From Schmidtea polychroa (lineage: Eukaryota), in NCBI GenBank assembly GCA_044892525.1, contig CM097885.1:22446001-22510000 (forward strand): 64,000 nt of DNA, in the 5' to 3' direction. The notes beneath the pieces are model-generated. The model saw only the letters and a program-made list of their open reading frames with translations, was not told the origin of the DNA and ran no database searches. Of the stretch, positions 19,401 to 25,400 are shown piece by piece. The number at the start of each line of letters is the position of its first letter. Within the stretch, counting starts at the first letter, position 1. The translations under genes and the position numbers were made by a program.

Positions 19401-22400
19401 ATATAACATCAGGTAGAACATATTCCGATGGATTTCCGATTTCATAAACTAGCTGTTCTTTCACAGTAGCTGGTGTTACAATACCGCCTGTATTTTCTGG
19501 TTTGGTAACAATAAACTCACCGTTTTCCTCGACTTCAACAATCGGAAATCCAATGTTCCACCTTTATATAAGAAATTATAATCTACTGATTAAACATTTA
19601 CCAATCTGGAACTGAGAAGCAATCAGTAAAGATTCCTCCAGTTACTTGAGCTCCACATTCAATCAAATGGCCGGCAAGACTAATTAGGCAAATGAATAAC
19701 AGAAAAAAATAATTATACTAAATGTAATATTTTCAAAAAATGATTTAGATGAAGACTAAAATAGAATTACATTAATGTCTTTCTAACTCGCCAATTCCAG
19801 GAAATAAGAAATAGCTGACATTTCTCATATCAAATTTTAATAAAAAAGAAGAATAAAAAAATAATCCTATCATTCAGTGTTGCACCTTCTATTTTCTTCA
19901 AGGATTTGATAATTTGTTCACTTTATATCAGAATTTTCAAGTTTTCAATGCTTTTAACTTTATAATCCTACTTTTAATCTTCTAAACCTCACATGTTTTC
20001 AACATCAAGTTCTACTAAAATTGTACCGCTTTCCATAAATTCTATGGCAAAAGAATTTTATTTTGAGTATATAATAAACTTTAGAAATTTCGAAAAATAT
20101 GTTTGTCGAATGTAAAACTAAAAATGTATAACTTCCGAAAGCTTTAATTATCATTGTGTAGAGAATTTATTCCATATCGAACTACCAAAGATATATTGAA
20201 AACAATTGAGTAAATCACTAGGGAAATCGATAATGACTCAAATTTTTTAACATAATTTTTCAGGAAATTTTATTTTTCTCTAAACAAAAAATTGGAAAAG
20301 ATTAAAATTTGATATTTTATGTTTTCAAAACGGGCTTTAAGATTTCAAATATTTAAGCACTTTGAAAATACCCCTAAAATAATCCAACTATTAATTAGAA
20401 TTTCACATGATTTTTTTAGCACAAAAAAACTAAACGTTATTCACAAAAGAATGACGTCATATATAAGGATATATAATAATTTGAACAACTATTTGCTAAA
20501 GATTTATATATATATATATATATATATATATATATATATATATATATATATATATATATATATATATATATATATATATATATATATATATATATATATA
20601 TATATTTCGAATAACTTGGGACTATATGGCTAAAAGATGGTAAAAACGAGGAGAATCAATTAGAGAAGATATGAAATGAGATTATTTAAATTTTTAAAAG
20701 ATCAAATAAAATTAACTACCTTCCGGCTGCAAGTTTATCCAGATCGCTGTTGTCCCATTTAAACTGAAATAAATATTAAGTGCTAAATTTTCACTATTGA
20801 TCGAAAATTATCATCTCATAATTTAAAGGAAACAATAATTATTTAATGATCTATAGACGAAAACTAAGTGTAGATTAATGAAATTATGTATTGAGCAGCT
20901 AGGGGGCGGGGAGACAGAATATAGGATTCAGTGTGCCTCAGAAACAATGCAAAAGCCAGATGTATACAATGGGGAGTTCAAATTCAAAGATGAATCAGGA
21001 GAAGAATATAGATTCCAAGAGAATTGGTACGAGATGCTGGGTTGTATGCAGAAGCGAATATTGTATGTGTTCTAAAGAGTGTTCTAGATCAATTTTAACA
21101 GGAAATAACTATTAGATTTAATCGTCTCAATGGTTTGAACTCAAAAATGGATTTATATTAGATGTCCTGAATGATCTATAGAGTGAGCATCTGAATATTT
21201 GTATACGCAAATTGATTTGATCTATCAACTTATTATGACATTGGTGTTAATGGCTGTGAGGTATTTTCGACTGAGAATTAAATATATCAATGATTTATTA
21301 AGATAATTTTAAATGATAAATATTTGACTATTTAAAATAACTTTTAAAATAATTTTTAAATTGAATTTTTTAAATTAAAAAATTAAAAAATTAAATAAAC
21401 TTTTTATTAGTAAATCATTTTTAAATAAATATATTTTAAATATCGAAATTTTAATAAATGGTTTTTTAAAATATTTATGTGCTTGAAATCATAGATGTAA
21501 AAAACGACAGGAAACTTCTTAAACTATAAATTGTAAACATTATGTCATTATCTACCAAATTTAAAGAAATTTAAAACTGAGTTCGTAGTATAAATTGTAA
21601 AGGTATAAATTGTACTTGAAAAATGTATTATTATAACACTAAGTCGCCCAACTAGGGTTTAATCATTTCAGTTCTTGAACTAATCCTCATCTTCGGATGC
21701 CACTCCACAGTTTCTTCAATCGGATTAATATCAGTCAGTTTATCGGTTAATCGAAGATTACTGTGGACAAAGACAACATTTCATACTTTTGCGCAGCTCA
21801 GCCGATTTCTCTTCTTTGTGTGGATAAAATCAAAGGTGGACCAATTTCTTTCACAAGCCGACGCTGATGCCACTTGCGATAAAAGACGAATATCCACTTT
21901 CTGTAGTTCAGACTCATGAGCCCCTAAATGCTAGCCACCAACGAAAAGCTGGCATTTCTTTCGCAGCAGCAGTTGCCACTTCGCGTCCAAACAGCCCCTG
22001 ACCAGCACGATAAACACTATGCTGCTGGATTGTTTTTACCTGAGACTGTACGTCACCATTATGAACTCTCTCAATCATAGAGTGAAATCCTGAGATAACT
22101 TCATTTTCATGTTGTAGGAAAGCTCGATATTCAGGATCTAGTACAAAATCTGCCGAATGAAGATCTGTGTGAGTAGGTGGATTGGGCACCGCTGGCACAG
22201 GGCACCGCTAGCACAGTACCCCCCCCCCGTCGGTAAGATTTTCAAAAATATTCTAAGTCTAAAAGTACATTTTTTTTTCAAGGTCAAATTTAAACAAAGA
22301 CATATGACTCATCAAGGTCATTGAAACAAAGACCATGAGTCATCCTATGACTCATAAAATTTTTCAAGGTCATTTAAACAAAGACCATGACTCATCCGAT

Positions 22401-25400
22401 GACTCATCAAGGTCATTTTCAAGGTCATATGACTCATAATATGACTCATCAAGGTCAAAAAAATTTTCTCAAGGTCATTTAAACAAAGACCATAACTCAT
22501 CAAGGTCACTTTCAAGGTCATATGACTCATAGTATGACTCATTTGACCTTGAAAAATTTTTTTCAAGGTCATATGACTCGTCCTATGACTCATCAAGGTC
22601 ATTTTCAAGGTCATATGACTCATAGTATGACTCAGTTGACCTTGAAAAATTTTTTTCAAGGTCATATGACTCATCCTATGCCTCATCAAGGTCATTTTCA
22701 AGGTCATATGACTCATAGTATGACTCATTTGACCTTGAAAAATTTTTTTCAAGGTCATATGACTCATCCTATGACTCATCAAGGTCATTTTCAAGGTCAC
22801 ATGACTCATAGTATGACTCATTTGGCTTTGAAAAATTTTTTTCAAGGTCATATGACTCATCCTATGACTCATCAAGGTCACTCTCAAGGTCATATGACTC
22901 ATCCGATGAGTCATCAAAATTTTCAAGGTCATTTTCAAGGTCATCTGAGTCATCCTATGACTCATCAAGGTCATTTTCAAGGTCACGTGACTCATCCAAG
23001 GTCATTCCCAAGGTCATATGAGTCATCGCGATGACTCATCAAGGTCATATTATTATTTTTAAAAATATTATTATTTTTATTATTATTTTTAAAAATATTA
23101 TTATTTTATTTTTAATTTTTTCAAAGTTCCCGCCAACGAAAATTAATAATCGATAGCTCATTTTAAAGCTCAATCCAAGACCTTTCGAATGAGCTATATA
23201 TCTTGTTACTATTATTATTATTATTATTATTATTATTATTATTAATCTATATACTCCGAGTCTATATACTCCTAGTCTATCCGACAAAATATTTTGTCCC
23301 CCTATGGGTAATGCTCACAAGGGTACTGGTCACGCTCAACAAATCAACAAATCAACAAAACATACATTTATTTAAACAATAAAATAATGTAAAATTAACA
23401 AAGGTAAACTAAATATTGATGTACTATTCGCAGCAATATTGTTAGAAATTGGTAACGTTGAATTGATTTTCAGAGATTCTATTGATCCTTTGATTGTTTG
23501 AATTTCTCTTAATAATAATTCAATCTTTTTTAACAAATAATCATGCTTCTTATCAATTATTTTCATATTCATTTTATTTTCAACAATAGAGTTATTGAAA
23601 ACCTTAATATGATCAATCAATTCAAATTTTATATTTTGTATATATTCAAATGATAGTTCATAACTGTTTTCTAAATTCTCCAATCTTTGAGATATTCTTT
23701 TTCCTGGATGCTTTGACCATTTTGGTTTGTCGAGAATATATAAAATATCCATCAACTTGGCTGTATTCGGACAAACACATATTGATTTATTAAAAGACTC
23801 CACTGTTATTGTTGTATTGTGTGAGCACACACTCGTTATAATAATTAGCAATATGAATATAGTTTTCATGGTGTATCAAATCAAAACCTTTCTTTTACAT
23901 TTATAGTCTATCAACCAATCAAAATCATCCGGTATTAGTATAAATAAAACATCATATTTTAAAATATTGTAAAAAAAAAAATGTCTAATTTAATGGAAAA
24001 TATGTGCAGAGAACTCATCAACAAGAATATTATGGAAAGCCTAATTTTCCTGGTCGATCGGACCGAAAAGATTATAGAAGGTAATCACATTGATTATGAG
24101 GACGTCCTCAATTCCGATTCCCTCGAAACAAAGAAATTCTATTTTAATAGAATATTTAATTGCTTATGCGACGAGGAGATGAAGTGGACCCGAATATTAG
24201 TAGGGTTCGCTTATATGAAGATAATAATTGAAAAAAGCCTATTGGATTCTGAGCACTATTATCAGTGGTCTCAAGAAGTAATACTTTTATAATCTATATT
24301 TTATTAATATATATTTTCTAGATAATCAAGTCAAAGTTTCAGCCATGGATTGAAGCCAATGGCGGATGGGGCGTGCTGAATCGACTCGCCAGAAATGCAA
24401 AAGAATTAGATCAGCAAAAAATCCAATTTAAAAACTATTTAAAACTTGCAACAGGTGTTGCTATTTTATATGTTTTATGTCGTTTTTTTAAATAAAATTT
24501 ATATAGTTATTTTGTTTGATTTTTAAATAAAATTTTAAATAAATTTACAAACACTAAGATTTATTAATTAACACATTCGCAGTCGTCATCTCCACATTTC
24601 ATTATATTTTCAACGACATGATCAATACAATCATTCGTAATATTATCTTTAGATTCATCTTTAGGTTCCTCTATAGGTTCCTCTATAGGTTCCTCTATAG
24701 GTTCATACATTTCCTCTTGTGTTTCTTCCTCATCAATTTCTTGAGTTTCTTCCTCATCATCAAATCCTGTATCTTGACTCTCAACTAACCAGCCGATATT
24801 TAAGGCATTTGTAATAGATAATATATCCTCCATTTTCACACCAGATATTTCTGCTAACTTTTCCAACAAAAAGTTGATTAAAAATTCTAAATAATAAATA
24901 ATTCGGTAATTAATTAATCATGTTAACCTTTTTCTGCAGTCATTTTCATCACTTTAAAACTATATTATAATTTTGTTTATAGATTTTCTTTGTTAAATTT
25001 GCATGTCATTTGCATTTATGTTGCAATTAATAAAGAGAAAAACAAATCTGACTAATACATTTATTAAATATAACATTAAAATATTTGTGAAAGTCTAGCA
25101 GACATAATTTTCCAAATAGGAGAATATACATCATTATTATCAACTTTATATCCCTGGATTGCTATTGTTATATACCAATTTTCATTTTCTTTGAAACTGA
25201 TTTCATCAAAAGCATCATAAAATCTTGCATATCTATTGTTGAACCATGCATGTTGATTACACGATAGATTCGAATCTATCCGTTTAAAAACATCATCAAT
25301 AGTTTTGACATCAATCATTGAAAGCGTGCCGGATAAGAATTCGAATTTAGTTGGAATTAGCTTGACTGGTGCAACCAATTTCATATTGATTTCTTCTTTC

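Follow-up and report, generated by a model that had tools for sequence, protein, structure and literature searches.

Arrays of AP-1-type and NR5-type words in the terminal inverted repeats of a planarian Maverick/Polinton as candidate host-factor enhancers

The 64,000-nucleotide stretch of Schmidtea polychroa DNA analyzed here (contig CM097885.1, positions 22,446,001 to 22,510,000; hereafter the window) contains a complete 19.5-kb Maverick/Polinton element, at window positions 22172-41693, whose terminal inverted repeats (TIRs) are loaded with two 9-bp words. One, ATGA(C/G)TCAT, is an AP-1-type site and the other, TCAAGGTCA, is a nuclear receptor (NR) half-site of the NR5 type. The word arrays are real, non-random and conserved within a lineage. 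We place at roughly 55% the probability that they serve as landing pads for host basic leucine zipper (bZIP) and NR5 proteins and act as terminal enhancers. An enhancer role as against an origin role, and a link to wounding or to the gonad, are what we infer from the sequence.

The left array contains 25 perfect ATGA(C/G)TCAT (22 forward and 3 reverse) and 29 TCAAGGTCA (26 and 3), and the right array 44 and 41, bearing out the original prediction of dozens of AP-1-like and NR5-like sites per end. Neither 9-mer occurs in the 16.5-kb element interior, and the 44.5 kb of window flanking the element holds four and two copies, respectively. Together the two words fill 62% of the 770-bp left array and ~38% of the 1,245-bp left TIR, so that a description of the TIRs as built almost entirely from them was overstated. 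A 93-bp period is detected by Tandem Repeats Finder (TRF; 6.5 copies, 87% matches) in the middle portion of the array only; on its outer and inner sides the words form irregular mosaics. A 93-bp unit with four copies of each word had been proposed; the period stands, as do four TCAAGGTCA in each of the three complete units checked, but perfect ATGA(C/G)TCAT number only 2, 2 and 3 in those units. The palindrome also claimed, TGACCTTGA and TCAAGGTCA around an A/T tract, is present in three intact copies and one decayed copy. A third recurring word, AACAAAGAC, which had been overlooked, occurs four times per end and is presumably Sox/TCF-like.

Chance is excluded as the origin of this word density. 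Dinucleotide shuffles of one natural unit never produced at least two of both words (0 of 20,000), no control tandem array among 212 from 326 kb of other fetched DNA contains at least two of either word, and TGA(C/G)TCA words are clustered above chance, as in an array of TPA response elements (TREs). Array architecture is loose. Among 40 ends picked by position, the number of sites ranges from 0 to 78 and their order varies from copy to copy, and 12-bp AP-1 doublets have variable spacers, with CCT, AGT, CCG, AAT and ACT each found in 22-37 ends. Two open reading frames (ORFs) within the left array (22345-22995 and 22522-23034) were rejected as genes, being repeat read-throughs. A hairpin role for the inverted NR pair was likewise rejected; the pair can fold (-11.1 kcal/mol as DNA), yet families 2-5 do not have it, nor do some ends of family 1, the family of the window element.

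Family 1 is young and abundant in the host genome, where 1,727 exact 20-base ends and at least 150 near-identical ATPases are found. Other end types were recovered by searching the host genome with divergent capsids and then fetching the flanks. Divergence from family 1 at 4-fold degenerate sites is 0.44-0.47 for family 2 and 0.41 for family 3, and silent divergence reaches 0.62 for family 4. The TIRs of family 1 and its sisters align in patches only, at best 66% over 262 nt and 82% over 56 nt. The words nevertheless recur: family 2 (434 ends) contains 13 TRE, 2 cAMP response elements (CREs), 7 CAAGGT(C/T)A and 7 AACAAAGAC, together with direct repeats of spacing zero (DR0), in repeats that differ from those of family 1, and family 3 contains 16 TRE and 1 CRE, without NR words. 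The first site lies ~106 bp inside the terminus in family 1 and ~20 bp inside it in families 2 and 3. TRE and CRE interchange in the same context, and at least 11 of 15 family-2 ends carry CRE words; both are bZIP site classes (PMC5349851). The same 15 ends contain GGTCAAGGTCA (15/15), ACAAGGTCA (15/15) and TCAAGGTTA (10/15).

The NR word is also re-amplified in unrelated units. Derivatives with family-1 ends re-amplify TCAAGGTCA in an ATT-rich 38-41-bp unit, and the other units are DR0 repeats and TAGGTCA repeats, which occur in different copies of a fifth end type; we take the TAGGTCA repeats to be RORE-like. Two loci, L118 and L119, share a terminus and are 99% identical in ATPase and TBP-like protein but differ in their AGGTCA words. 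Three gene-poor foldbacks with Maverick ends (no ORF of at least 120 aa in the arms) carry their own repeats of TRE, TTACGTCA and TTA(C/T)GTAA, the latter two presumably ATF- and PAR-type sites. The original prediction had staked its claim on conservation in related families. Such conservation mostly holds, extending to TRE in families 2 and 3 and to CAAGGTCA in family 2, but not to family 4 or to a distant nested Maverick; the array trait is lineage-specific, not Maverick-wide. Because families exchange gene modules by recombination, divergence between genes is only an approximate guide to that of the TIRs. The L118 and L119 locus pair is itself mosaic (L118:5124-6375 and L119:5300-6482), with an ATPase 96% identical to that of family 1, a TBP-like protein 54-55% identical, and a different terminus.

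Variation among family-1 copies supports selection on the words. The comparison covered the first 270 columns of an alignment of 55 out of 60 family-1 ends, the other five being too short or having fewer than three sites; a variant was scored as shared if present in at least three ends, and the test treats related copies as independent. Shared and private variants number 52 and 79 in other columns and 8 and 42 in motif cores (p=0.0025), and shared variants remain depleted in cores when the test is restricted to the 36 ends picked solely for their position (p=0.0012). Private variants are about equally frequent in cores and elsewhere. Of the variant types within TCAAGGTCA, 18 of 19 that are shared fall at positions 1, 7 and 9, compared with 74 of 131 that are private (p=0.0008). 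These p-values take related copies as independent, and conversion among the repeated cores would have the same effect as selection, so they favor selection but do not prove it.

Candidate binders are encoded by the host. An NR5 DNA-binding domain (DBD) at locus L061 has an ESCKG P-box and an RGGR extension, with best structure matches to SF-1/NR5A2. It is 72% identical to flatworm FTZ-F1 and 71% to a Schistosoma mansoni FTZ-F1 entry, its best named matches are all from Platyhelminthes, and the Schistosoma protein is likely its ortholog. A second gene, L070, has the ESCKG P-box, with no RGGR extension seen. Jun-like and Fos-like bZIPs are represented by the pair L088/L089. Among 53 zinc-finger matches, the 30 inspected show no ERR/ER-type P-box (CEACK/CEGCKAF); NR5 is favored over ERR, which this sample does not support as a binder. 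The earlier match of the words to AP-1 and SF-1/Ftz-F1/ERR sites agrees with the Jun-, Fos- and NR5-type genes of the host. Several other host DBDs are presumably COUP-TF/NR2-like. No bZIP or nuclear-receptor domain is present in the element ORFs scanned, several of which have no assigned family.

Published binding data are consistent with NR5 recognition. In electrophoretic mobility shift assays (EMSAs), Schistosoma FTZ-F1 is positive for TCAAGGTCA, CCAAGGTCA, GGTCAAGGTCA, ACAAGGTCA, TCAAGGTTA and DR0, and negative for CCAAGGCCA (PMC8673669 S4 Table). The positive words are the common words of families 1 and 2, with CCAAGGTCA at 128 sites in family 1. The NR word as a whole follows (T/C)CAAGG(T/C)CA and varies at tolerated positions, although its GGCCA variant fits vertebrate NR5A and not the flatworm EMSA. 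Nr5a2 is a pioneer factor that binds TCAAGG(C/T)CA as a monomer (PMC11102866), and binding specificities are described as broadly conserved between fly and human orthologs (PMC4362205).

We propose that AP-1-type words would bind host bZIP proteins (Jun/Fos/ATF) and NR5-type words proteins of the FTZ-F1 family, so that each end of the integrated element would carry an enhancer able to open chromatin. Monomeric NR5 may open silenced ends, and signal-induced AP-1 may add activation that makes the enhancer signal-dependent. Both genes adjoining the TIRs run towards them, so a TIR is not their promoter, and the array would instead act at a distance of 0.8-5 kb on inward host-type promoters. The inward promoter-like stretches bear CCAAT-like and TATA-like words, and one also bears AACAAAGAC and, in family 1, the sole interior TRE. 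Early products (the family B DNA polymerase, pPolB, and the element's mini-TBP) might then start copying and late gene expression, a weaker step, and the array would be the first switch of the cascade if mini-TBP drives late genes. Unit number shifts freely by slippage and recombination; therefore word and dose would be kept rather than the 93-bp unit. A wound link is suggested because fos-1 and jun-1 are injury-induced in planarians (PMC5515462).

Several observations weigh against this reading. Family 4 has no NR word and amplifies ATGAG(T/C)TAT(C/T)GCGC, the counterpart of ATGAGTCATCGCGC in family 3 with the TRE broken, which shows that TIRs can also amplify a word that does not match. Both words are missing from the distant nested Maverick and from two gene-less foldbacks of 17 kb, and the interior TRE is missing in families 2 and 3. 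The family-1 word TCAAGGCCA (33 sites, 26 of 60 ends) fits vertebrate NR5A, and the related CCAAGGCCA is the word scored negative for the flatworm protein in the S4 Table. The variant test is uninformative in family 2 (5:27 against 2:7, 18 ends), conversion among repeated cores would likewise clear variants from them, and the variants that are shared do not represent independent events. The center of the AP-1 word, G in 107 of 115 variants, was rejected as weak proof of selection and is counted on this side; the bias was discounted because a palindrome flip gives the same change and flips of the rare G are frequent.

The same host factors may mainly aid excision, protein-primed initiation or integration at the ends rather than transcription, as NFI and Oct-1 do at adenovirus termini (PMC5717082). 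This is unlikely. It would suit the position of the arrays ~100 bp inside both termini, and the three gene-poor foldbacks, which have little to transcribe, keep word repeats of their own; on the other hand, TRE and NR words are absent from the inside of the two large gene-less foldbacks, a replication helper should need only one or two sites at fixed spacing where 0 to 78 per end are found, and an interior promoter-like stretch contains the same words. Palindromic words flip readily and tend to be corrected to perfect symmetry, a process that could give the G center and the CRE form under a neutral minisatellite model, in which slippage multiplied a handful of ancestral words close to the terminus, conversion homogenized them, and their resemblance to AP-1 and NR5 sites is due to chance. 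We consider this model quite unlikely, even though the non-matching versions amplified in family 4 and the wide variation in array length and order agree with it. The control arrays contain neither word twice, three different words persist over ~45% silent divergence while their neighbors do not, the non-palindromic NR word varies almost only where proteins tolerate change, and AGGTCA words with three different 5' extensions have been amplified in separate end types.

It is very unlikely that the words are sites for an element-encoded protein (a terminal protein, integrase or small ORF product) with which they co-evolve. The word change in family 4 accompanies a TBP-like protein only ~55% identical, and several small ORFs have no assigned family, but no DNA-binding family was detected in the ORFs scanned, AGGTCA words differ between L118 and L119 despite their near-identical proteins, and a single protein would need to recognize TGAC-type palindromes as well as extended AGGTCA half-sites. 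Recruitment of host repressors (COUP-TF/TR2-type proteins on AGGTCA repeats, or repressive bZIPs) that keep the element latent is highly improbable. The COUP-TF/NR2-like host DBDs and the DR0 words of families 2 and 5 are compatible with it; family 1, however, lacks DR0, TCAAGGTCA and TRE are classic activator words, and a young, very high-copy family would hardly amplify silencers.

The arrays impose a large load on the host genome. ATGA(C/G)TCAT occurs 67,878 times genome-wide against 2,876 for the reversed control (24x), and TCAAGGTCA 97,461 times against 3,031 (32x). Family-1 ends explain an estimated 24,000-33,000 of the former (36-49%) and 23,000-31,000 of the latter (24-32%), based on means per end of 14.0-19.1 and 13.5-17.8 counted within 2 kb. 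A further context, ATT-rich, holds 18,134 NR words, a number that includes the last site of family-1 arrays. The family-1 load is enough to bias motif analyses, and the ends may serve as a sink or as mobile enhancers. A vertebrate survey states that particles have not been observed (PMC8097293), and the array points to two host factor families, and to injury as a condition, that may wake an integrated animal Maverick. A broader proposal, speculative and rather doubtful, is that Maverick TIRs are swappable host-signal cassettes (AP-1 with NR5, TRE/CRE, DR0, RORE-like or PAR-like by lineage), that the AP-1 and NR5 lineage is tied to the injury response with wound-triggered heritable spread in a regenerating animal, and that ends holding a third to half of the genome's perfect AP-1 9-mers compete for or redirect host factors.

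The window element belongs, by its ends and genes, to the Maverick/Polinton group: it has TIRs with AG...CT ends, a 6-bp target-site duplication (TSD), pPolB, integrase, ATPase, protease and a double jelly-roll capsid (Table 1). The TIR arms are 96-99% complementary by inverted-repeat search, and TGTGTG flanks the element on both sides. Of the six end pairs inspected, five have a 6-bp TSD, and the pairing of the sixth was a guess.

Table 1. Features of the Maverick/Polinton element and its borders, in window coordinates
Feature	Position	Strand	Evidence or remark
Left TSD, TGTGTG, 6 bp	22166..22171	+	
Left TIR, 1,245 bp, begins AGTAG	22172..23416	+	Inverted repeats I1, I2, I7
Left motif array: 25 ATGA(C/G)TCAT, 29 TCAAGGTCA, 4 AACAAAGAC	22278..23047	+	Word counts
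93-bp tandem core, including inverted TGACCTTGA...TCAAGGTCA pair	22387..22995	+	TRF
Inner TIR module (TTCCCGCC ... GACCTTTCGAATGA), candidate cis element	23126..23195	+	
165-aa ORF, direction towards left TIR	23372..23869	-	CCAAT-like and TATA-like words upstream, retained in families 1-3
136-aa ORF	25076..25486	-	
Promoter-like stretch of 136-aa ORF: AACAAAGAC, CCAAT-like, sole interior TRE of element, TATA-like	25522..25575	-	
TBP-like gene	26400..26837	-	Pfam PF00352, E 1.3e-15
A32-like packaging ATPase	26937..27563	+	Pfam PF04665, E 3.6e-7
Retroviral-type integrase with chromodomain	28177..29268	+	Pfam rve, E 1.1e-5, under cut-off
Candidate minor capsid	29214..30287		Label from position and size only
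Double jelly-roll major capsid protein	30642..31862	+	Atlas score 0.98 to PF21738 clusters
Adenovirus-type cysteine protease, open frame without ATG start	31847..32275	+	Pfam PF00770, E 3.7e-6
Family B DNA polymerase (pPolB)	35246..38512	+	PHROG DNA polymerase, E 2.2e-20; protein priming predicted
RING-finger ORF, direction towards right TIR	39602..39928	+	Pfam PF13920, E 5.7e-10
Right TIR, 1,773 bp	39921..41693	-	Inverted repeats
Right motif array: 44 ATGA(C/G)TCAT, 41 TCAAGGTCA	40368..41587	-	Exceeds left by additional 93-bp units
Right TSD, TGTGTG, 6 bp	41694..41699	+	

The inner TIR module, TTCCCGCC followed by GACCTTTCGAATGA, is separate from the array and is common to family 1 and the three gene-poor foldbacks (L122, L126 and L131); we take TTCCCGCC to be E2F-like. 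The 165-aa ORF has a hydrophobic N-terminus and coiled-coil character, and its product is possibly secreted; it is 84-87% identical in families 2 and 3 and absent from family 4. The 136-aa ORF has no match in Pfam, PHROG or Atlas. In its promoter-like stretch the TRE is present in family 1 only, and the CCAAT and TATA labels are our assumption. An ATT microsatellite tract (28566-28635) interrupts the integrase gene in frame. Between protease and pPolB, at 32790-33850, lie acidic, internally repeated frames that are probably a spliced gene, with DIIFL-type motifs presumed to be SUMO-interaction-like. A DUF659 (hAT-type transposase) remnant lies at 41848-42378 on the minus strand, and the element is located at its end.

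Elsewhere in the host genome, Mavericks and their passengers have inserted in one another, with a family-1 end just outside a family-2 end (L105) and a foldback within a family-1 capsid gene (L122). The distant Maverick (pPolB 27% identical) is nested in a family-1-ended shell on host contig C1 at ~688,300-702,650 (joined L128, L179 and L180, 4300-18645), and it is bounded by a 512-bp perfect direct duplication, not a 6-bp TSD. Outside the host genome, searches of viral contigs with the capsid protein, its alignment or a junction 17-mer yielded no confirmed loci, and the four metagenome loci related to the element (1.1-2.1 kb) are too short to reach TIRs.

Maverick/Polinton elements of the adintovirus type share with the window element the integrase, pPolB, ATPase, protease and capsid genes, AGT-type ends and a 6-bp TSD, and its TIR length is near the top of the 46-1,447 bp given for vertebrate Mavericks (PMC8097293, PMC8502044). 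The window lineage differs by an added TBP-like gene, and no transcription-factor sites in TIRs are described in the parts of those two sources consulted. Factor sites in Maverick TIRs were not found in the literature as judged by titles, term counts and abstract openings, although supplements and Repbase entries could hold TIR descriptions; PMC12660999 has no passage on nr5a, ftz-f1 or AP-1. That viral and transposon repeats are loaded with host sites is a known principle; the literature searched gave no example of it in Maverick TIRs with word sets particular to each family.

Three known systems come close. The homologous regions (hrs) of baculoviruses are likewise AT-rich arrays, with units of ~70-90 bp that combine a palindrome with scattered CRE/TRE words; their enhancer strength follows the combined CRE and TRE count, and they also serve as origins (PMC13513840). 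Unlike the window array, hrs are dispersed, have a palindrome that binds viral IE1, and contain few perfect TREs (PMC13513840). The window array, by comparison, has no ~30-bp IE1-binding palindrome dispersed in a baculovirus genome, and is terminal and denser and pairs bZIP with nuclear-receptor words; the likeness is one of analogy, with no homology claimed. The inverted terminal repeat (ITR) of adenovirus is also the end of a linear, protein-primed DNA virus and has host-factor sites for replication (NFI, NFIII/Oct-1) and transcription (Sp1, ATF), but it is ~137 bp long, has single sites at fixed spacing and no nuclear-receptor arrays, and is not integrated (PMC5717082). Nr5a2 motifs in mouse short interspersed element (SINE) B1 offer a case of a mobile element spreading TCAAGG(C/T)CA sites genome-wide to an NR5 pioneer factor, although B1 is a short retroelement with few sites per copy and was studied as host co-option (PMC11102866). 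The window element instead presents dozens of sites at each end of a DNA virus-like element, with AP-1 words added, and its array belongs to none of the three: hrs, adenovirus ITRs or SINE B1.

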